Positions 21,307 through 54,100 of a DNA stretch of 64,000 nucleotides are shown piece after piece. Position numbers and translations under genes: made by a program. The notes under the pieces are model-generated. The model was not told where the DNA came from, did not search any database, and saw only the letters and a program-made list of their open reading frames with translations. The stretch is from Chlamydiales bacterium (GTDB lineage Bacteria > Chlamydiota > Chlamydiia > Chlamydiales > SM23-39): positions 74,289 to 138,288 of the forward strand of contig JANQFC010000027.1 of assembly GCA_028278035.1 (NCBI GenBank). Direction: 5' to 3'. Every line of letters starts with the position of its first letter. The stretch's first letter is position 1.

Positions 21307-24033
21307 ATGACAGATTATAAATTTGATCCTTCTTTAAATATTTTATACAAAGAACACCATAATTTGGATTATGTTTTTGATCCTAAAAGCATAGCTGTAA
21401 TAGGAGCTACTGATAGGGACGGAAGTGTGGGCAAAACTCTTTTGGATAATTTGCTGCAGAAATTCACAGGTAAAATTTATCCTGTTAATCCTAAGAAAGA
21501 TAAGATTTTAGGACTTAAAGCTTATAAAAGTATAAAGGACATTAAAGATACTATAGAGCTATGTGTAATTGCAACTCCTGCCAAAACAGTTCCAAGTATT
21601 ATAAAAGAAGCAGTGGAAGCAAAAATTCCTGCTGCAGTTATTATATCTGCGGGTTTTAAAGAGTTAGGAGAGCCCGGTATAAAACTTGAAAAAGAAATAA
21701 TGAAGCATGCCAAAGGTAAAATGAGAATAATCGGACCTAACTGTTTAGGGGTTATGAATCCCATTAATGGCCTTAATGCTACATTTGCAGCTGAAATGGC
21801 AAATAAGGGAAATATTGCTTTTATAAGTCAGTCAGGAGCCTTATGTACAGCTGTACTGGATTGGAGCTTAAAAGAAAAAGTAGGATTTAGCTCTTTTGTA
21901 TCAATCGGTTCTATGTTAGATGTTAACTGGGGGGATTTGATTTATTATTTTGGAAATGATCCTAATACCAAGAGCATACTGATATATATGGAAAGTATTG
22001 GTGATCCCAGATATTTTTTATCAGCAGCAAGAGAAGTGGCTCTTACAAAACCGATAATTTTAATTAAAGCCGGAAGGACTAAAGAATCAGCTCAAGCTGC
22101 AGCTTCACATACAGGCGCTTTAGCTGGCAGTGATGAAGTGTTAAATGCAGCTTTAAGAAGAGTGGGTATTTTAAGGGTTTATAATATTTCGGATTTATTT
22201 AATATGGCCGAAGTATTATCAAAGCAGCCTATTCCAAAAGGGCCAAATTTGGTTATTATTACAAATGCCGGAGGGCCTGGAGTAATAGCGACAGATGCAT
22301 TAGTGGAATCTCAGGGACAGATTGCAAAGCTTTCTAAAAAAAGCTATGATGAGCTAAACAACTTTTTACCGGAGGCTTGGAGCCATAATAATCCGGTAGA
22401 TTTATTAGGAGACGCTACTGCGGATTTATATGCCAAGAGTGTGGACATTTTATCAAAAGATGAAAATGTAGATGGTATTTTAGTAATCTTGACCCCTCAA
22501 TACATGACAGATCCAAAGGGAGTTGCTGAAAAACTCAAAAAATATTCCAGATTAGATTCCAAACCTTTATTGGCTTCTTGGATGGGAGCAAAGGTTGTAG
22601 AAGATGGAATGAAAATATTAGCAGATGAAGGAATACCTTCATTTAATTATCCGGATAATGCCTGTAAGGCATTTTCCTATATGCATTCATATAGCTACAA
22701 TTTAAAAGGGATTTATGAGACGCCTGTGCAGGAAAGCAAAAAGCTGTTTGATAAAAAGGTGATCGCAAAACATAAAAAAGTATCAGATATCATTCAAAAA
22801 GCCAAAAAGGAAAACCGATTTTTATTAGATGAATATGAATCTAAAAAAGTATTGAAAGCATATGACATTCCGGTTGTTGAAACCAACATAGCTAAAAACG
22901 CAGAAGAAGCTGCAGAGTTAGCTGAAAAAATCGGTTTTCCTATAGTTTTAAAGCTATATTCCAAAACTATCACCCATAAAACTGATGTTGGAGGCGTAAA
23001 GCTTAACTTAACGAATAAACAAGAAGTCAAAAGCGCTTTTTTAGATATTTATAATTCCGTAAAAAAAGCCGCTAATGCAAGTGATTTTCAGGGAGTAACT
23101 GTTCAGCCTATGATAAAACTAGAGGGTTATGAATTAATACTCGGTTCTTCAATAGACCATGAGTTTGGCCCTGTTTTATTATTTGGAACGGGAGGACAGC
23201 TGGTGGAAATTTTTCAAGATAAGTCTTTAGCGCTTCCGCCTTTGACCTCTACTTTAGCTAAAAGAATGATGGAGCAGACAAAGATATTTAAAGCCCTTCA
23301 GGGAACAAGGGGAAGGGAAACGGTAAATATAGAAGAAATGGAAAGGATATTGGTTCGATTTAGTAATCTTATTGTTGAGTATCCTGAGATTAAAGAATTT
23401 GATATAAATCCATTATTGGCATCTTCTGATAAGATAATAGCATTGGACGCTAGAATTATTCTGCATAAAACAGATGAAAGGCCAGCTCAGCTGGCTATTA
23501 GGCCGTATCCGCTTCACTATGTTACAAACTGGAGCTTAAAGGATGAAACTGAGGTAATAATCAGACCCATTATTCCTGAAGATGAACCTTTGGTTAAAAA
23601 ATTTTATCAAGATATTTCGGAAAAATCATTAAAACAAAGGTATTTAAAAGTCCTGCATTATGATGAGCTTATAGCTCATGATAGATTAGTTAGAATTTGT
23701 TTTAATGATTATGATAAGGAAATAGCGATTGTAACAGAGCTGGATCAAAAAGATTCCAGAGAAATTTTAGCAATAGCAAGACTTTCCAAACTTGCAGGGA
23801 CCGATGACGCTACTTTTGCAATTTTAGTAAAAGATAAATGGCAGAAGCGCGGCATTGGAAAGAAGCTGCTTAGCTCACTAATTGATATAGCTAAAGAAGA
23901 AGGTATCGAATATCTTATATCTTCCATGTTTACAGATAACGTCTCTATGCAGAAGATTTGCAGGGATTTGGGTTTTAAAATAAAAAAATCTCAAAAATCT
24001 ACAGTTGTTATTGCTGAGCTTGATTTGAAATAA
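21307..24033 (+). CDS. Pat-like protein: ADP-forming acetyl-CoA synthetase-like domains fused to a C-terminal GNAT acetyltransferase
   Basis: 908 aa. CoA-binding start [15 protein letters not shown], ligase-CoA blocks (IGPNCLG, ISQSGAL), ATP-grasp segment ([13 protein letters not shown]...VLKLYS...[10 protein letters not shown]), GNAT motif [11 protein letters not shown] near the C-terminus. Confidence 0.85.
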
Positions 24034-32937: not shown

Positions 32938-34206
32938 ATGAGAAAAGATTTATTAGCACCCAGTAAAAAGATATATGATCCAATACATGGCTTTATAAGA
33001 ATAGATGAGATTGAAAAAGATCTTATAGATTCCTATCCATTTCAAAGGCTTCATTATATAAGGCAGCTAGGCCTTACTTATTTGATATATCCGGGGGCTA
33101 CCCATACAAGATTTGAACATTCTTTAGGCGTTATGCATTTGTCTTCTATTATTTTCAAAAGACTTTGCAAAACGCTCAGGCCAGATGTATTTAATGAAGT
33201 GCCGAGAATAGGATCGGATGATTATATTTATTCGAAGCAAATTCTAAGACTTGCTGCTTTGTGTCATGACTTGGGGCATTTGCCCTTTTCTCATGTGGCA
33301 GAAAAAAAGTTATTAGATAATAAAGGACATGAAAAATGGACCTTGAATTTAATAGAAAGTCCTTATCTTGAAAAAATTTGGAAAAAACTACAAAAAAGAC
33401 CGGGATTTGAAAACAGAAATATCAAAGAAGATGTTATCAAAACTTCATTAGGAGAAGAAGTTTTAGAAAAACAGGGCAGAAATTATAAATTTTCTGCTTG
33501 GGAAAAAATATTGTCTTTAATAATTTCTGCGGATTTTTTTGGGGCGGACAGAATTGATTACCTTTTAAGGGATTCTAAATATACAGGTGTGGTATACGGC
33601 CTTTTTGATTATCTGCAGCTAATAGAGATGATGCGAATTTTACCGTCTAAAAAAAACAGCTTGGCTCTTGGTATTGACGAGGGTGGTTTGGAGTCTTGCG
33701 AAGCATTGCTGCTGGCAAGGCATTTTATGCATAAAAGAGTCTATAAACATCCGTCTGTTAAAGCATTTAATTTTCATTTGTCTAAATTTATGACAAGTAT
33801 TTATAAAGAATTTACAGATGAGGATTCTTTTTTACTGGCAACAGATGCGCATGTTATTGCAAAACTTACTAAAGCTTCTTTAAATAAAAAAGACCCTATG
33901 TATTCGGCCGCTGTTAAAATAGTTAGAAGAAAGGATCACTTCAAAGCTATACCGGCAAATTCGATTAGTGAAAAAGATTTAGAGAAATTTAAAAATGACA
34001 ATAAAATAAAAGATGATCAGATTTATTGGGAATTTGAAAAAACTTTAAAAAAAGATTTTTCTTTTTTAGTATCAAGAAAAAATTTAAAATTAGCAAAAGC
34101 CTCAGATATTTCATCAATTTTAAGCTATATACCGCCTTCCGAAAAAAAATGGGTATATATAGCACCTCAATATGAGGTGCTTTTTTTGAACTGCTTCAAA
34201 AAATAA
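32938..34206 (+). CDS. HD-domain dNTP triphosphohydrolase-like protein (SAMHD1/EF1143-like)
   Basis: IYDPIHGFIRI...FQRLHYIRQLG...YPGATHTRFEHSLGVMHL, CHDLGHLPFSH, GADRIDYLLRDS. Confidence 0.8.
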   Translation: MRKDLLAPSKKIYDPIHGFIRIDEIEKDLIDSYPFQRLHYIRQLGLTYLIYPGATHTRFEHSLGVMHLSSIIFKRLCKTLRPDVFNEVPRIGSDDYIYSKQILRLAALCHDLGHLPFSHVAEKKLLDNKGHEKWTLNLIESPYLEKIWKKLQKRPGFENRNIKEDVIKTSLGEEVLEKQGRNYKFSAWEKILSLIISADFFGADRIDYLLRDSKYTGVVYGLFDYLQLIEMMRILPSKKNSLALGIDEGGLESCEALLLARHFMHKRVYKHPSVKAFNFHLSKFMTSIYKEFTDEDSFLLATDAHVIAKLTKASLNKKDPMYSAAVKIVRRKDHFKAIPANSISEKDLEKFKNDNKIKDDQIYWEFEKTLKKDFSFLVSRKNLKLAKASDISSILSYIPPSEKKWVYIAPQYEVLFLNCFKK

Positions 34207-46384: not shown

Positions 46385-47563
46385 ATGAAAAAAAAATTAA
46401 GTATCTTTTCTTTAGGAATCGCAATTTTTACTATGATTTTCGGAGCTGGAAATATAGTATATCCTTTAATTTTAGGCAGAGAGACCGGATCTCAAATATC
46501 TTTTTCAATGATTGGTTTTATATTAACTGCGGTTATCGTTCCTATTATAGGGCTTGCAGCGGCTATTTTGTTTGAAGGGGATTATAAGAGATTTTTGAAA
46601 AACACAGGCAAACTGCCAAGTATTATTTTTATGTTTGTAATAATGCTTTTTATCATAGGACCCTTAGGAGCTATGACCAGATGCTTAATTTTGTCTTATT
46701 CAGCTTTAAAGATATATATGCCTGGAGTTCCGATATATGCATATTGTGCGGTAGCTTTATTTTTAGTATATTTATTAACTCGTAAGGAAAATAAAGTTGT
46801 GGATATTTTAGGGACAATATTAGGGCCTATTAAAATAACTCTTCTTGTAGCCATTATCGTTATTGGATTAGCAAGCGTTTTATCTTTTGTAAAGGTTCCA
46901 ATAACTCCTACAGAGGGTTTTGTTGAAGGAACTAAGGTGGGGTACTATACACTTGATCTTATAGGGATGATTTTTTTTTCCCGCTTAATATACGATGCTA
47001 TGAAAACTAAGTTTGATCAATTTGTTCAGCCTAAAAAAATTATTGTTCCGTGCCTGAAGGCAGGTTTGATATGCGCAGTATTATTAGGTGCTATTTATTT
47101 TGGGTTTGGGATTGTATCAGCTGCTTTTAGTTCTAAGCTAAAGGGAGTGGCTGATGAACAGCTTTTAAGTATTTTATCTATTAGAGTGTTGGGTAAGCAG
47201 GCGGGGATTTTAGCTAATTTAACAGTGGCTGTTTCAACTTTGGCTACGGCAACTGCTTTAGTGACTCTATTTTCCGACTATTTGACGTTTACTGTATTTA
47301 GAGGTAAGGTTTCATACAACAAGTCATTAATTATTACCATTTTGGCGGGTTTAGCAGCTGTTAATTTGGATTTTGAAGGCATTATGAAAATTATTGCGCC
47401 TATCGCGGTGGCAGTTTATCCGGCTTTAATTGTATTAACTTTGGGCAATATTGCTAACAAGCTTTTTAATTTTAAAGAAAAATATATAATGATTTCTGTT
47501 TGGATAGCGTTTGGTCTGACAATGGTGTTTCAATATATCTTGCCAAATTTGATGCATACATAA
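46385..47563 (+). CDS. brnQ: Branched-chain amino acid transport system II carrier (LIVCS family)
   Basis: 392 aa, 12 TM helices, N-terminal signature FTMIFGAGNIVYPLILG. Confidence 0.85.
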   Translation: MKKKLSIFSLGIAIFTMIFGAGNIVYPLILGRETGSQISFSMIGFILTAVIVPIIGLAAAILFEGDYKRFLKNTGKLPSIIFMFVIMLFIIGPLGAMTRCLILSYSALKIYMPGVPIYAYCAVALFLVYLLTRKENKVVDILGTILGPIKITLLVAIIVIGLASVLSFVKVPITPTEGFVEGTKVGYYTLDLIGMIFFSRLIYDAMKTKFDQFVQPKKIIVPCLKAGLICAVLLGAIYFGFGIVSAAFSSKLKGVADEQLLSILSIRVLGKQAGILANLTVAVSTLATATALVTLFSDYLTFTVFRGKVSYNKSLIITILAGLAAVNLDFEGIMKIIAPIAVAVYPALIVLTLGNIANKLFNFKEKYIMISVWIAFGLTMVFQYILPNLMHT

Positions 47564-47582
47564 GATCAAATGTTTATGTTTT

Positions 47583-47619
47583 ATATGAGTCATAATAAGT
47601 TAATATTTATGACTCATAT
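47583..47619. terminator. Hairpin between convergent brnQ and YVTN genes
   Basis: Perfect 13-bp stem ATATGAGTCATAA / TTATGACTCATAT with an 11-nt loop. No strong T-run, so function as a terminator is inferred from position. Confidence 0.5.
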
Positions 47620-47638
47620 GCTAATTCCAAATATCTTG

Positions 47639-48853
47639 TTAAGGGCAGGAGATTGTTACTTGACCGATAAGACTTTCGCTACCAACGTTATCAACTGATA
47701 CAACATAGTAACTATAAGTTTGACCAATCTGTCTATTATGATCTTCAAATTGTGTTGACGTAGTCTCTCCTATCCTATTGGTAAGACCGGAATCCCTATA
47801 AACTCTATATGACACGGCACCGGAGACGGCTCCCCAGGAGATCGTATTATAGAAATCCTTTTGAGATAAAAAAGTATTTGTAGAGCAAAAGCCGGAAATA
47901 GAGCCAGAAGAAGAAGTAACAAATGCAGATGCTAAAGGACTAGTGCCGACAGAAAATGAACTTGTTACAGTTTCCGAGGCAATATTTACAACAGAAACAG
48001 TGCCTGAACCAGAATTGGTTACATATGCATAAGTTCCATCATCTGACAAAGTTATACCATAAGGGATAGTTCCTATTCCTGAAGAAATATCATTTGTAAC
48101 TGTTTCTGAAGCTGTTGAAATAACAACTACTTTATTATCTGCTCCAGCTGTAACAAAGGCTTCAGTTCCGTCTGTGGTAAATATTATTCCATAAAGATTT
48201 CCTCCTCCTGCATTAATAATGTTGGTCTCACTTTCAGTTGCAGTATCAACTACAAAAAGGGTAGAACTAGAGCGGTTTACATAAGCTACGCTTCCATCGG
48301 GAGAAAATACCACTCCTAAGCCAGCACCGCTCAAATTTATAGTGTTAGTGACAGTATCTGAAGATGTTGTAATAACAGAAAGGGTCGAAGCTCCAGAATT
48401 AGCAACATAAACTTTAGTGCCGCTTGGGTTGGCATCGAGCCCTCTAGGAGTAGAACCCACATTAATAGTTTTGGAAACTGTTTCAGTTGCTACATCTATA
48501 ACAGAGACAGTATCATCTCCTGAATTACTTACATAAGCTTTTGTTCCATCAGGAGTAAAAGTAATAGCTGCCGGACTTCCTCCTACGTTAATGGTCTTAG
48601 TAACTGTTGCAGAAGAGACCGTTATGACGGAGACAGTATCGTCTCCAAAATTGACTACATAAGCTTTAGTTTCATCTGGAGTAGCCTTTACATCAAAAGG
48701 CTGACTTCCAACAGATATTGTATTTATTATCTGTTCTTGAGATACATTAACAATGCTGACCGTTTCATCGCTATAATTTAAAACATATGACAACTCTGTA
48801 GCCGTAAGGTTTATACCTATGAGTAAAAAAAATGCTAAAATAATTTTTTTCAT
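47639..48853 (-). CDS. Secreted YVTN-type beta-propeller repeat protein with C-terminal Fn3-like domain
   Basis: Signal peptide MKKIILAFFLLIGINLTA. About 7 repeats of about 42 aa (e.g. DDTVSVIDVATETVSKTINVGSTPRGLDANPSGTKVYVANSG). C-terminal ISWGAVSGAVSYRVYRD looks Fn3-like. Confidence 0.8.
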   Translation of the reverse strand: MKKIILAFFLLIGINLTATELSYVLNYSDETVSIVNVSQEQIINTISVGSQPFDVKATPDETKAYVVNFGDDTVSVITVSSATVTKTINVGGSPAAITFTPDGTKAYVSNSGDDTVSVIDVATETVSKTINVGSTPRGLDANPSGTKVYVANSGASTLSVITTSSDTVTNTINLSGAGLGVVFSPDGSVAYVNRSSSTLFVVDTATESETNIINAGGGNLYGIIFTTDGTEAFVTAGADNKVVVISTASETVTNDISSGIGTIPYGITLSDDGTYAYVTNSGSGTVSVVNIASETVTSSFSVGTSPLASAFVTSSSGSISGFCSTNTFLSQKDFYNTISWGAVSGAVSYRVYRDSGLTNRIGETTSTQFEDHNRQIGQTYSYYVVSVDNVGSESLIGQVTISCP

Positions 48854-48991
48854 ATTTTTTCCTTGGTAAAAGCGAAAAAAATATAAATTCTTCGTTTATA
48901 AACATCAACAAAAAATTTTAATGAATATTTAAAAAAATATTGAAAAAGCTAATATTAAAGTTTAAAATACAAGTAATATTTGGAGTTTAAA

Positions 48992-49594
48992 ATGTATAAA
49001 AAATTTATTTTTATTTTTGCCATTTCATTAATTTGTTTTACGCAGCTTAAAGCTACAGATGTATTACTTGAAGGACAGGTCGGATATTTTCTGCCGACCT
49101 CCAAAAAGTTTAGGGACATATATGGCAACGGCATGGTATTCGGGGGATTAGAAGTCACAGCAAAGCTGCAATGGCAGATGTACATTTGGGGCAGTACTCA
49201 TTATTATTATGATAAGGGAAAATCAATTGGATTGAGGGATACTACTGAAGTGACCATGGTTCCTATAGGTTTTGGTTTGAAATATTTGTATCCTGTTAAT
49301 TTTGTGGATTTGTATTTAGGAATTGGAGCTTTGCCCACATATGTGAAATTTAGGGATAAATCTGCATATGTAATACCCAAAAGTGATAAATGGACTTTGG
49401 GGGGCATTGCTAAGATGGGGGCGATATTTAATATTAATAAACATTTTTTCATAGATTTATTTACAAATTATTCCATGGTAAGAACAAAATTTGATGATAC
49501 CAATAATAACAATAGGGTTGAACGAACCAGTTCAACTTTGGATACTTGGAATATTGGATTAGGTCTTGGCTATAGATTTGGTAAAAACTCTTAA
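48992..49594 (+). CDS. Small outer-membrane beta-barrel protein (OmpW/OmpX-size)
   Basis: Signal peptide MYKKFIFIFAISLICFTQLKA, alternating hydrophobic beta-strand pattern, aromatic-rich C-terminal strand NIGLGLGYRF. Confidence 0.55.
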   Translation: MYKKFIFIFAISLICFTQLKATDVLLEGQVGYFLPTSKKFRDIYGNGMVFGGLEVTAKLQWQMYIWGSTHYYYDKGKSIGLRDTTEVTMVPIGFGLKYLYPVNFVDLYLGIGALPTYVKFRDKSAYVIPKSDKWTLGGIAKMGAIFNINKHFFIDLFTNYSMVRTKFDDTNNNNRVERTSSTLDTWNIGLGLGYRFGKNS

Positions 49595-49848
49595 AACGAA
49601 TACTTTGTCTAAAAGTTTTATTAATCCTGTAAAAAATTAAATTCAATATTTTTTTAGATTCAAAATATGCTATCAGTTGTAAAATTTTTATTTTTTAATT
49701 GATGATCTTTGAAATTAAGGTAAATTTAATCATTTATTTAAAATGCAATTAAATTAATTAATAATATCATTTTTTATTTATTGTTGATTATAATAAAATT
49801 AACTTAATTAAAATGTTGTGCGAAAACAAAATTAAGGTGAATTAAAAA

Positions 49849-50751
49849 ATGAAAGATATTCAAAGAAATAATTTAGTTAGTAATCCTTCTTATTATGACA
49901 GAAATTTTGAAAATGATGTCCCTGAAATCAAAAACAAAGAACAATCAATAACAGTTGGTGGGCATTCGCTCACTATTACTGCTGATACTGTAAGAAAGTC
50001 TTTAACAGCAATATTTCCGTTAATTTGCTCTTTTAAACCAGTCGGCAGGGCAATGAGTATTGCACTAGATAGTGTAAATAGCATTAAGTCTATAATGCAT
50101 TTTAGACATCAGGTAAATGAACAAGGCTTTAAGGCTTTACCTAACTCTGTCTCAATTAGGAATGACACTTATAGCGCATCCATTAGGTCTATTTTTGAAT
50201 ACCGGGAAAGAAACGGTTAATAATGCTTTTGATACTATTAAAGCCCTGTATAATCAAGAATACAAAAAAGCATTTTTTACATTATTCAACACAGCCAATA
50301 ACAGGCTAAAATGCAAAGCTGCTCCCAGGCTGCTAAAACTTCAAAAACAGATCAAGCTTTAGATGTTAAGACTGCTAAAACCAATCAAGCATCAAATGTT
50401 AAATCAGCTAATAAATCTCAAAATTTTAGTATGGAAATAAGACCTGATAAATTTGAACCTGATACTACTTTTAATGGATGGAGAGCAAGTATAGGATATT
50501 ACAATTTTGCAGGGGAGTCTTTCAAGATTGTAACTATTAACCATGATCCGTCTGGAAGATATCGCTCAGGTTCGCAGTTAGTTTATTATGGTAATGAAAT
50601 TGACAGCTATTGCTTGGTATATTCAGAGGTTACAATTAACGGCAGTAAGTATAAGAAACATCAATATGAAGATATGGATGATGATGGTATGCGTCTTATT
50701 ATAGATGTTTTTACCAGCGCAATAAATCAATATATCGTATTTACATGTTAA
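49849..50751 (+). pseudogene. Probable doubly frameshifted gene (about 300 aa if repaired), unknown function
   Basis: ORFs 49849-50220 (frame 1), 50117-50362 (frame 2) and 50311-50751 (frame 1) overlap head-to-tail. The frame-2 piece reads protein-like across the frame-1 stops. Confidence 0.4.
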
Positions 50752-51130
50752 TGTTGTTCCTAGTTACTGGCTTAGAAACCTACTAATTTTGAGTTACTTA
50801 TATTTTGAAACAATCAATTAAAATTAAAAATATATATTTTTGTAAAAAAATAATTGATTATTCAATTCATCGAAAATAAATGGTTATTTACGTATATGTA
50901 AATAATACTGGTAGCTTACAATATTTTTACTTTTTTTATCACTAAATAGCTTATTATTAATAATATAGCATTTGAACATTCTTTAGGATCTAAAATACAA
51001 ATATTTTATTTTCAACAACTTAGGCCAATAGGGTTTTTTTATAATTAAATTATTAATAAATAATTAATTATGTTATAATTAAATTTATTATTAAATAGAA
51101 TAAAAATATTATTAAGGAATAATTATAAAA

Positions 51131-54100
51131 ATGTCTTCAGTTATTAATTTACGTCAACAAGAAGGATTAGAGGTCTTCAAAAGAAGTTATCAAGAAGAAG
51201 ACGTTCAAGTTGCTATTAAAGAGTTTAAGGAATGGAAAGATCAACAAAGATATGGATTATCTTATAATGACATTCAAATAATTTTACAATCCATTACTGA
51301 AGAATTATTCCGAAAGAAAAATATTGAGTTTTTAAAACAAACCGCTTTAGCTTTTATTTCAAATAATGTAATAACAACTATCGATTCTCGAAGAATGTGC
51401 GGTAATTTTATAAGGTCACTTAACGTTTTAGGTAGCGATGTACTAATTGAAGTATTTTCTGCCGTTTTAGAGAAATGTAGTTATATATCAGCTTTTATAG
51501 ACAATTTTTATACTGGTGCTTTTGGTATCCCAGATGAAAAGGACAGAATAAAATTAGCTAAAATTGTTGCTGTTCACGATAGTTGTAGTATTGGGAATAA
51601 TATTCAAGAGTTTTGTATTTCAGATGAAAAAACAAGAGTAGAAATAGCGATGATAGCTGCACAAAAAAGGCGGGGTGTTGCTGATAACATTGAAAAATTC
51701 AATATTTCAGATGAAAATAGAAGGATTGAGATAGCTAAGATAATAGCGGAACGAGACGGAAAAGAGATTGCACTAACAATACAAAAATTCAGTATTTCAG
51801 ATGAAAATAGAAGAATTGAAATAGCAAAGATAGCTGCAAAAAATAGTCCTCAATATGTTGCTACATACATTAAAAAGTTCGATATTTCAGATGAAAAAGC
51901 AAGAATTGAAATAGCCGAGATATGTCTAGAACAAAATGCAAAAGAGGTAGCAAATTACATACAAAATTTTAATATATCAGATATAAATAAAAGGAGTGAA
52001 TTAGCCCAAAAAATAGCCACTAGAGATGGAAGAGCTATTTCTGAAAGAATACAAGATTTTCGAATTTACGATAAAGAAACGATGGTAAAAATAGCTATAG
52101 CTGCTGCAAAACAAAATGGTTCTAGTGTTATAAAAAATATTCGAAATTTCGCTCTTTCAAATGATCTAGCAATGATTGTATGTATAATAGCAGAACGAGA
52201 CAGAGAAAATCTCATTAAAAGTATTAAAAATTTTAACATAAATAGTAAATTTAAATTATTAATAGATTATTTGGAACTTCGGGAAATATTTGATCTTATA
52301 TTATTGAAATTACAGGCAGATAATCCGAATTATCAATTTACAGATGAAGCTTTAGTGGCTCTAAAGAAAATATATCAAAATATCATTGATGAGAAAAATC
52401 CCTTATGGCAACAAAATATGTTGGAATGTTTTTATGAAACTATAGCTGGAATATACCGAAATAATATTTCCTCCGAACAAATTGTTTTCCTTAGACCATT
52501 ATTAGAAAAAATTCAAAAATATCGCGAACCAGAAAGACGAAAAATACTTATAAATTTAGCCCTAGATGTCACTAGAACAAAATATAACCAGTTACATGAT
52601 ATTTTAAGTCAAAAACCAGATTATCAGCATTTGCCTGGATTATATTTGATTGATTTGATAAATGATGCGCATGTCTGTGAACAAATATTTCAGCTTATCC
52701 ATCGCATGTTTAGAGATGTAATGAATGCACGGATATTAATAGATGTGTTGTCTTTTTTAAAGGCGAGCAATTTAAGTCAAGAGGACAAAATATTCTTGTT
52801 AAGATATGCACTAGAGGGAAATAAAAAAGAGATACTTATAAAACTTACTGCCATACAGGGTATCTGCAGGCTGGAAGAAACTCAGCAATTGACTGAAGCC
52901 AATTTGACCCGATATAATCTAGATACTTTATTTCAACAAATATTCAACCAGCATGTTGAACATACACAGATAGATAATTTCGCAACAAAATTTAATCAAA
53001 CTTTTGCCAGATTTAGAAATCCATGGGCACTACTTACATATGCTCAGGGTATAAAAACTTTACAAGACCGAAGACTAATGTCTCTTTTGGGAAAATATAT
53101 CGAGTCTGTTCTCAATGGCGATTTTGAAGTGCGCTACGATAAAGCAATCAGTCCTCATTTAAAAAAAATTTTTTCATATAATAGCAAAATAGAAGAATTG
53201 TGGAGAAAAAGCGATAGAATTGAAATTACTCCAATGTCAGGTAACAATATAGAGACTAACATCAAAGAATATTTAAAGACTAAAATTATAACAGATCGAC
53301 ATTTAGGAAATTGTGCTGAAAAATTACCTTATCTCTATCAATACTTGATAAATAACACAAAGCCTACAATAGAATTGAAAAGAGATGAACTGGTTAAGCT
53401 GCAAAAATTATGCATAGAGCTTTGTGAAGCCTCTGCTTCAGAGCGTGTAACATATCTAGACAGGCTCTTAGCGCATTTACATGAAATGGAAAATGTCCGA
53501 ACTTTTATGCAGGATATAGAAGAGTTAAAACAACAATTGCTGCCAAAGGAATATAACCAGGAAGCTGAATGTACTATTGAGGATTACCCAGAAGACTATT
53601 TGGTTGTTGCCAGTGAGACAACAGGATGTCAGCGGGTAGATGGTAATCCTAGTCTAAATAAGGCTCTTTTGGCGTATATGATGGACGGTAAAAATAGAAT
53701 TATCGCAATAAAAGATAAAAAGACTGGTAAATTGATTGCCCGGGCGATTTTTAGAATATTGTGGGATAGAGATAATAATAAGCCCATGCTTTTTGTAGAA
53801 AGATTTTATCCATCTAATATTAAGCTTGAACATCAAAAAGCAATCCACGATATGGCTATAAAAAGGGGGAGGGAAATGAATTTAGATGTAGTGACTTCTA
53901 ATATATTGGAAAATACAGAGAGACATCTAGTAAATCTTGCTTCTTTAGGAGGAATAGCTCCTTTTGAATATTCTGATGCAGCTGGAGGTATGTTCGAAGG
54001 AGGTAAATTTATAATAAATGGACAATCAAATCTATATCTTTTATTTAAAGCCATAGATGCTGATTCTAACGATAATTCTGGATCGTGTTCAATTTTATAA
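51131..54100 (+). CDS. Large repeat-containing hypothetical protein (989 aa), effector candidate
   Basis: SD AAGGAA upstream. Contains 8-9 tandem 30-aa repeats and a long helical region. The C-terminal domain of about 190 aa matches no family I recognise. Confidence 0.7.
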   Translation: MSSVINLRQQEGLEVFKRSYQEEDVQVAIKEFKEWKDQQRYGLSYNDIQIILQSITEELFRKKNIEFLKQTALAFISNNVITTIDSRRMCGNFIRSLNVLGSDVLIEVFSAVLEKCSYISAFIDNFYTGAFGIPDEKDRIKLAKIVAVHDSCSIGNNIQEFCISDEKTRVEIAMIAAQKRRGVADNIEKFNISDENRRIEIAKIIAERDGKEIALTIQKFSISDENRRIEIAKIAAKNSPQYVATYIKKFDISDEKARIEIAEICLEQNAKEVANYIQNFNISDINKRSELAQKIATRDGRAISERIQDFRIYDKETMVKIAIAAAKQNGSSVIKNIRNFALSNDLAMIVCIIAERDRENLIKSIKNFNINSKFKLLIDYLELREIFDLILLKLQADNPNYQFTDEALVALKKIYQNIIDEKNPLWQQNMLECFYETIAGIYRNNISSEQIVFLRPLLEKIQKYREPERRKILINLALDVTRTKYNQLHDILSQKPDYQHLPGLYLIDLINDAHVCEQIFQLIHRMFRDVMNARILIDVLSFLKASNLSQEDKIFLLRYALEGNKKEILIKLTAIQGICRLEETQQLTEANLTRYNLDTLFQQIFNQHVEHTQIDNFATKFNQTFARFRNPWALLTYAQGIKTLQDRRLMSLLGKYIESVLNGDFEVRYDKAISPHLKKIFSYNSKIEELWRKSDRIEITPMSGNNIETNIKEYLKTKIITDRHLGNCAEKLPYLYQYLINNTKPTIELKRDELVKLQKLCIELCEASASERVTYLDRLLAHLHEMENVRTFMQDIEELKQQLLPKEYNQEAECTIEDYPEDYLVVASETTGCQRVDGNPSLNKALLAYMMDGKNRIIAIKDKKTGKLIARAIFRILWDRDNNKPMLFVERFYPSNIKLEHQKAIHDMAIKRGREMNLDVVTSNILENTERHLVNLASLGGIAPFEYSDAAGGMFEGGKFIINGQSNLYLLFKAIDADSNDNSGSCSIL
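51509..52246 (+). repeat. Intragenic tandem 90-bp (30-aa) repeats, consensus I-x-x-F-x-I-S-D-E-x-x-R-I-E-I-A-K-I-x-A
   Basis: Repeat-initial Phe at residues 131, 161, 190, 220, 250, 280, 310, 340. Examples: IEKFNISDENRRIEIAKIIAERDGKEIALT and IQKFSISDENRRIEIAKIAAKNSPQYVATY. Confidence 0.85.

Follow-up and report, generated by a model that had tools for sequence, protein, structure and literature searches.

The gene described here lies in a stretch of 64,000 nt (referred to below as the window) from contig JANQFC010000027.1 of an environmental chlamydia. A complete open reading frame (ORF) at positions 51131 to 54100 on the forward strand encodes a protein of 989 amino acids, P0001. The gene starts with ATG and ends with TAA at 54098 to 54100; a Shine-Dalgarno-like AAGGA is present 12 nt before the start codon, upstream of which just 5 more codons remain open. 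Four regions, all on the forward strand, can be distinguished in the encoded protein: an N-terminal region (residues 1 to 126, 51131 to 51508), which is predicted to be helical with a predicted local distance difference test score (pLDDT) of 44 to 75 and is not conserved among homologues; an array in which eight 30-residue helix-turn-helix repeats are followed by a degenerate ninth (residues 127 to 372, 51509 to 52246); an all-helical middle domain (residues 373 to 805, 52247 to 53545); and a C-terminal domain (residues 806 to 975, 53546 to 54055) whose modelled structure is assignable at the fold level to the GNAT superfamily.

AlphaFold2 modelling of the whole protein from a 50-sequence alignment yielded a mean pLDDT of 86.3 and revealed an alpha/beta domain at residues 812 to 972. 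A separate model of residues 760 to 989 had a pLDDT of 89.5 and a predicted template modeling score (pTM) of 0.78. DSSP assigned strand β1 to residues 812 to 817, helices α1 and α2 to 820 to 829 and 840 to 851, strands β2, β3, and β4 to 855 to 862, 868 to 879, and 884 to 893, helix α3 to 899 to 916, and strand β5 to 920 to 922. The predicted model thus has the GNAT topology β1-α1-α2-β2-β3-β4-α3-β5, to which extra beta-hairpins are added. When the separate model was compared with the PDB using Foldseek, nearly all of the top 50 matches were GNAT-fold acyltransferases. The best match was RimI (7n1l; E = 6.8e-4, probability 1.0), which aligned over about 120 residues with a target-normalised template modeling score (TM) of 0.53 to 0.58 and a root mean square deviation of 3.6 to 4.5 Å. 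Others included NatD/Naa40 (4ua3), N-myristoyltransferase (1iyl), spermidine/spermine acetyltransferase, and aminoglycoside acetyltransferases, as well as the GNAT toxins TacT (5fvj), AtaT2 (7f37), and GmvT (9ils). A fold search with the whole model returned generic solenoids (designed helical repeats, importins, and auxiliary subunits of NatA/NatB) at E ≥ 0.026, and GNAT matches recurred. The original prediction, made from the DNA alone, had declared the C-terminal domain unassignable to any family; this still holds for the sequence libraries, which were silent, but not for the fold, which emerged from the Foldseek search with the model.

Several findings nevertheless weigh against reading the C-terminal domain as a conventional acyltransferase. 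The fold assignment comes from a predicted model, and the Foldseek E-values were only about 1e-3. At the level of sequence, neither Pfam (E ≤ 1) nor NCBIfam indicated a GNAT or other usable family in P0001, and Pfam returned no match for 28 diverse C-terminal domains of the family even at E ≤ 10. A PDB profile search with the family returned nothing, searching the PDB by sequence was likewise unhelpful, and hhalign against seven canonical GNATs from the same genome gave a probability of 0.3%. As a positive control, Pfam readily detected the canonical GNAT of a Pat-like protein encoded in the same window. Motif A (Q/R-x-x-G-x-G/A) is absent from the β4-α3 loop (residues 894 to 898), which has no conserved glycine and which, after Tyr893, varies in both length and sequence throughout the family alignment. 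No helix α4 appears in the model, where β5 leads into a variable loop and four short strands; in GNATs, α4 and the β6-β7 arm complete the CoA site. Because motif A is missing and α4 was not modelled, the use of acyl-coenzyme A (acyl-CoA) is unsupported by the usual markers.

The closest structural neighbours of the model in BFVD were uncharacterised phage proteins of 320 to 1,100 residues (E = 7e-6 to 1e-4). Among them, proteins of uncultured marine phages and of Dickeya phage vB_DsoM_JA29 matched at E = 7e-6 to 5e-5, better than any solved GNAT. Phage proteins thus outranked every GNAT in the PDB, and a PcfJ-like phage protein was found at rank 50, as might be expected if the domain were a distant relative of the PcfJ-like domain (PF14284), which occurs in phages and conjugative elements and has a single conserved Cys; the family would then belong with systems of mobile-element conflict and not with host manipulation. 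Both domains are C-terminal, both have one conserved Cys, and the PcfJ pattern L-x-H-C-V-x-x-Y...G-K-x-x-I-x-F-x-R is superficially similar. We consider this highly improbable, since PF14284 was without a match in the entire genome at a threshold as lenient as E ≤ 10, and when hhalign was used to compare the family profile with nine diverse PcfJ domains (PcfJ of pCF10 and eight phage PcfJ-like proteins), the probabilities were 0.2 to 0.3%. PHROGs yielded no consistent match for the 28 diverse C-terminal domains, and the genomic context of P0001 is not that of a mobile element. With PF14284 silent and no profile-profile signal from hhalign, a PcfJ identity was rejected as unsupported; we know of no function established for PcfJ itself.

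Conservation was assessed over 162 homologues and was highest in the C-terminal domain, where the last ∼150 residues reached up to 47% identity in pairwise alignments. Near-invariant positions in this domain are Asp818, Cys833, Gln834, Asn843, Tyr849, Gly853, Arg871, Arg875, Pro885, Tyr893, Glu946, Tyr947, and Asp949. Cys833 (codon TGT, 53627 to 53629, forward strand) lies next to Gln834 in the α1-α2 loop, is kept in 99% of the homologues, and is invariant in a diverse set of 28 sequences. Asn843, Leu846, and Tyr849 are conserved in α2, Arg871 (100%) and Arg875 in β3, and Pro885, Leu887, and Tyr893 (99%) in β4. The motif Glu946-Tyr947-x-Asp949 (97%, 98%, and 99%, respectively) is located after β5, on the stretch with the variable loop and the four short strands. 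Asp818 is conserved, and Asp822 is kept at a lower level (86%). Overall, about ten polar residues (Cys, Gln, Asn, Arg, Tyr, Glu, and Asp) are 90 to 100% kept at 25 to 35% overall identity; P0001 retains every near-invariant polar residue, and the sole deviation found was Gly827, which is replaced by Ala. These results agree with the compact C-terminal domain that had been proposed at first, bear out its description as enzymatic looking through both the near-invariant polar residues and the GNAT fold, and answer the call for a check of invariant residues, which had allowed for their absence. In GNATs, the α1-α2 loop, the end of β4, and the segment after β5 line the substrate cleft. Since the conserved residues of P0001 fall on these same elements, they plausibly form one site around the cleft, as judged from the topology of the model.

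Noncatalytic GNAT-fold domains exist in the superfamily, and the loss of motif A and helix α4 would also fit a pseudo-GNAT that binds a ligand or a protein, with P0001 as a whole serving as a scaffold or adaptor. This appears very unlikely to us, as a pure scaffold would less typically retain about ten polar residues at 90 to 100% than would an active or ligand site; polar conservation does not, however, separate catalysis from tight ligand binding.

Sequence conservation extends from the C-terminal domain into the middle domain. The model is all-helical over residues ∼373 to 805, which matches the ∼430-amino-acid helical region originally predicted to follow the repeats, and has a pLDDT mostly of 84 to 97 from residue 400 onwards and of about 48 to 59 over residues 371 to 400. 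Within it, a block at residues 600 to 730 (52928 to 53320, forward strand) contains the near-invariant residues Arg629, Tyr637, Arg668, Tyr669, His676, Leu677, and Trp691, of which Arg668 and Trp691 are kept in 100% and His676 in 98% of the 162 homologues. His676 is the sole near-invariant histidine. Together, this helical block (with Arg629, Tyr637, Arg668, His676, and Trp691) and the GNAT-fold domain make up a constant module of ∼400 residues.

A cysteine-dependent enzyme of another chemistry (a hydrolase, deacylase, protease, or transferase) could also be envisaged, in which Cys833 would act with His676 and an acidic residue and the GNAT-like sheet would be a mere scaffold. Cys833 ranks as the most conserved residue, the sole near-invariant histidine is part of the neighbouring helical block, several acidic residues are conserved (Asp818, Asp822, Glu946, and Asp949), and the canonical CoA motif is missing. 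On the other hand, no papain-like, transglutaminase-like, or other thiol-hydrolase fold was present among the top 50 PDB matches, and Cys833 is situated in a loop, whereas the cysteine of papain-like enzymes is at the N terminus of a helix. We therefore regard such an enzyme as distinctly unlikely.

The repeat array precedes the constant module. Residues 127 to 366 comprise eight units in an exact 30-residue register, with the degenerate ninth unit after them, so that the eight to nine regular repeats noted at the outset could be confirmed. The core of the units in P0001 reads I-x-x-F-x-I-S-D-E-x-x-R-I-E-I-A-K-I-x-A, and the family consensus is IqNYgI.De.aLIEIAKiaAqQdG.gvSeY. (with variable positions as dots). 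Over residues 136 to 368, AlphaFold2 predicted one 14-residue and one 11-residue helix per unit with a pLDDT of about 97, and the modelled array forms an alpha-solenoid, as had been suspected. On the DNA, Tandem Repeats Finder detected periods of 90/180 with 67 to 75% matches (scores of 258 to 397); because matches reached just this level, the units are the products of old and not of recent duplications. With a repeat hidden Markov model (HMM), the 30-residue unit was found in 172 of 180 retrieved family proteins, in 1 to 21 copies (median, 7), and 741 successive pairs across the family were spaced by exactly 30 residues, which was overwhelmingly the predominant spacing. As an identity for the repeats, DUF4116 (PF13475) was rejected: its HMM did not match P0001 at E ≤ 1, and the sole weak match in the genome (E = 0.5) sits on a different contig. 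The HMM of DUF6364 (PF19891) did not match P0001 either. Several homologues exceeded its whole-protein cutoff (63 bits for P0002), with all single stretches below the cutoff; these scores are the sum of many subthreshold repeat matches to profile positions 10 to 38.

P0001 had originally been described as an orphan, which is contradicted by 52 homologues in a word-indexed search of the 90% database and by an exhaustive HMMER search of 1.84 billion representatives (50% library), which recovered 1,614 representatives at E ≤ 1e-3, 1,247 at 1e-10, and 565 at 1e-30. Every named member was annotated as a hypothetical protein, and no paper title or abstract describing the family was found in the literature. 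The C-terminal domain was detected in 175 of the 180 retrieved proteins, always at the very end. Most homologues share the order repeats, helical middle, and C-terminal domain, and in pairwise alignments the repeats align in many registers. The full family signature is present in P0001 itself: the repeat array, R/Y/R/H/W in the helical block, and C, R, Y, plus E-Y-x-D at the C-terminal end. The solenoid is the variable part: in relatives, the number of units that can be detected ranges from none or one up to at least 21, and some have a divergent type of repeat or ankyrin repeats in addition. Member length is only partly explained by the number of detectable repeats (r = 0.33), and the longest members contained no added Pfam domains beyond weak repeat-derived matches. 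One member (P0014) possesses an extra canonical GNAT at its N terminus. Three others (P0013, P0103, and P0151) begin with a Gly/Ala-rich hydrophobic segment of ∼30 residues (e.g., LAGAGVALAAIGLCSASIVAGAAGAALLGKV); these N-proximal segments could be membrane anchors and are reminiscent of the hydrophobic domains of inclusion membrane proteins.

Short "stand-alone" homologues were mostly located on very short contigs. The one from Noviherbaspirillum saxi, a cultured free-living betaproteobacterium, has a complete context (L098, QYUO01000003.1, 5400 to 8720) and turned out to be the 3' part of a long gene that is interrupted in frame. An ORF of 859 amino acids encodes ankyrin repeats, a few degenerate 30-amino-acid-like repeats, and the conserved helical block (equivalent to residues 600 to 730 of P0001), and an ORF of 239 amino acids in the same frame, separated from it by one stop codon, encodes the C-terminal domain. 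N. saxi thus carries the same module, and the interruption is a split gene, a pseudogene, a case of readthrough, or a sequencing error.

Among species-representative genomes, 108 loci were confirmed, and the titles of the best 70 of these 108 were examined. With the taxonomic labels of metagenome-assembled genomes (MAGs) accepted as given, almost all of these 70 belonged to MAGs of Chlamydiota (Parachlamydiaceae, Waddliaceae, Rhabdochlamydia/Rhabdochlamydiaceae, and "Chlamydiae bacterium"). In a sample of the phylum, the profile of the C-terminal domain was matched in 100 of 400 genomes, spread over 71 of the 212 genera. Within the family to which the P0001 genome belongs, 8 of 68 genomes had the domain, against 0 of 29 in another family. 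Genomes contained 1 to 9 or more copies, some of them in tandem arrays. One such array comprises six paralogues within 16 kb (G211:C2:309735-325923), and a Waddliaceae MAG has four copies within 80 kb (L005, L006, L009, and L016; CAWGIG010000004.1, 11 to 92 kb). Two copies are present in the genome of P0001 itself (1.79 Mb, 97 contigs), the second being a frame of 1,186 codons on contig C59 with a different flavour of repeat and every invariant residue kept. Beside this paralogue, the C-terminal part of a DnaB-type helicase is encoded (L002, 3011 to 4402, minus strand), in which an intein/homing-endonuclease-like insertion was recognised by eye. A search of 18 same-family relatives with full-length P0001 gave a best match of 33% identity. 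Synteny gave no date for the arrival of the gene, as the sampled relatives all belong to other genera and are too diverged at the DNA level. The patchy, multi-copy distribution and the best identity of 33% argue for an accessory, fast-diverging, and amplifiable family and not for a core structural protein. A widespread structural protein, the outcome that would have spoken against the first interpretation, is likewise not what was seen, with the domain in 25% of the sampled phylum genomes and in 8 of 68 from its own family. Taken as a whole, this unnamed accessory family is large, evolves fast, and belongs to environmental Chlamydiota, with sporadic members in other groups.

We propose that the constant module is a host-directed enzyme resembling an acyltransferase, borne on a targeting scaffold that can be swapped, a reading of the sequence and model that we consider about as likely as not. 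In this scheme, a thioester-type donor would provide an acyl (or similar) group, which the C-terminal module would transfer to a substrate near the β4/β5 cleft; Cys833 in the α1-α2 loop might take part covalently or help to position the substrate. The missing canonical loop for the CoA pyrophosphate might be replaced by Arg and His residues of the helical block and of strand β3. Alternatively, the donor may not be linked to CoA; some GNAT-fold enzymes use aminoacyl-tRNA or acyl-acyl carrier protein. The solenoid would select or recruit the target, and the protein would act on proteins of the protist host after export, most likely via the type III system. A more far-reaching version is that the family represents a new class of GNAT-fold enzymes which would have lost the canonical CoA loop and would work through the invariant cysteine, using either covalent catalysis or a donor other than CoA. 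Chlamydiae and a few other bacteria would employ many paralogues with swappable solenoids (30-residue, divergent, or ankyrin) as a modular toolkit that modifies different host proteins; this we think unlikely.

The putative effector status of P0001 is plausible, given a patchy, multi-copy family centred on obligate intracellular Chlamydiota, and the host-directed reading also draws on the occurrence of the module behind ankyrin repeats in N. saxi. The type III apparatus was checked through one component, FHIPEP/SctV, and an export-gate gene of this family was found in the P0001 genome (contig C12, E = 2.9e-228). Neither a signal peptide nor a transmembrane segment was found in P0001 (maximum Kyte-Doolittle 19-residue mean, 1.40), and the first 60 residues lack a hydrophobic stretch. 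These 60 residues were modelled with low confidence, residues 1 to 50 having a pLDDT of 44 to 55. The lack of a Sec signal together with a low-confidence N terminus is necessary, but far from sufficient, for a type III effector.

Members outside the phylum count against a host-directed role. A few were found in MAGs labelled Verrucomicrobia, Planctomycetales, and Proteobacteria/Deltaproteobacteria, besides the cultured betaproteobacterium, and 4 of 5 examined members with labels other than Chlamydiota had the canonical C-terminal domain, one "Deltaproteobacteria" member being divergent. Such members show that the module extends beyond obligate intracellular bacteria. They would be expected if P0001 were a nonexported cytoplasmic enzyme or regulator, acting on a bacterial protein, a small molecule, or a nucleic-acid-linked substrate, with the solenoid as an internal scaffold. 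Such a role would also agree with the lack of a recognisable secretion signal or chaperone and with the fact that numerous GNATs modify the cell's own proteins, among them RimI, the nearest structural match. However, a housekeeping function would not normally go with a patchy, multi-copy, tandem, and very fast-diverging occurrence in obligate intracellular bacteria, the non-chlamydial member has eukaryote-type ankyrin repeats, and a few members carry the N-proximal Gly/Ala-rich hydrophobic segments that are possible membrane anchors. On balance, we judge a purely cytoplasmic role to be unlikely, if still worth serious consideration.

The predicted domain resembles the GNAT superfamily in its strand and helix order, with a target-normalised TM of 0.5 to 0.58 over about 120 residues, and in the placement of its conserved residues on elements of the GNAT cleft. 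Unlike GNATs, P0001 has no detectable sequence similarity to the superfamily, neither Q/R-x-x-G-x-G/A nor α4, and extra beta-hairpins instead; its family has its own invariant set of Cys, Arg, Tyr, and Glu-Tyr-x-Asp and an obligatory preceding helical block with invariant Arg, His, and Trp. Bacterial effectors in which a repeat scaffold is combined with a host-modifying enzyme include VipF of Legionella, which has tandem GNATs, and enzymes with ankyrin repeats such as RomA/LegAS4. As proposed for P0001, these combine a repeat or helical targeting region with a catalytic end, occur in intracellular bacteria of amoebae, and belong to multi-copy, fast-evolving families. GNATs of the VipF type, in contrast, retain the canonical CoA motif that P0001 lacks, and the resemblance is one of overall logic. 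In the eukaryotic N-terminal acetyltransferase complexes NatA and NatB, a large alpha-solenoid likewise cradles a small GNAT-fold unit. There, however, the two are separate polypeptides, the repeats are of the tetratricopeptide type, and the Foldseek matches (8bip_B and 4hnx_A) were nonsignificant (E = 0.16 to 0.4), so this resemblance is an analogy only. Both the fold and the effector-like logic are thus familiar; the features that lack a description so far are the family itself, its cysteine-centred site devoid of a CoA motif, and the obligatory helical block.

In environmental chlamydiae, large genes that await an explanation number in the hundreds. The present family comprises over 1,600 sequence clusters, is unnamed in curated libraries (Pfam, NCBIfam, PHROGs, and PDB), and now has a defined constant module, a predicted fold, and a short list of residues for mutation. 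If P0001 and its relatives are enzymes injected into protist hosts, the chlamydial repertoire would extend to a widespread means of modifying the host whose chemistry may be unusual, and thousands of "hypothetical proteins" would gain a Pfam-type domain definition. If they are not secreted, they would still constitute an undescribed GNAT-fold branch with a cysteine-centred site.

The intergenic leader of the P0001 gene (50752 to 51130, forward strand, 379 bp) has a G+C content of 16.9%; it ranks among the lowest 0.35% of windows of 380 bp, which bears out its earlier description as very AT rich. A motif shared with other effector-like genes, also claimed for the leader, did not hold up. The longest word that it shares, the exact 18-nt word ATTTGAACATTCTTTAGG (50970 to 50987), has its other copy at 33111 to 33128 in the interior of the coding region of the ORF at 32938 to 34206. 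The shorter core CATTTGAACAT, with 1 mismatch allowed, was present 6 times in the window versus an expected 2.8 ± 2.0 and thus was not enriched; the 18-nt match is probably due to chance. Promoter-like hexamers were no more frequent in the leader than in shuffled sequences.

The neighbours of the P0001 gene are an outer membrane protein (OMP) beta-barrel gene, a broken gene, and GrpB, with no chaperone-like gene seen among them. The broken gene, directly upstream at 49849 to 50751 on the forward strand, consists of three overlapping ORF pieces, two of which were searched against Pfam with zero matches. Farther away in the window, the Pat-like protein acetyltransferase that served as the positive control (21307 to 24033, forward strand; 908 amino acids) combines CoA-binding, succinyl-CoA-ligase-like, ATP-grasp, and canonical C-terminal GNAT domains. 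The OMP beta-barrel gene and a beta-propeller gene form a pair at 46385 to 49600, just upstream of the P0001 gene, and a second copy of this pair, 64 to 70% identical, is present on another contig of the genome (C11:56963-58830).

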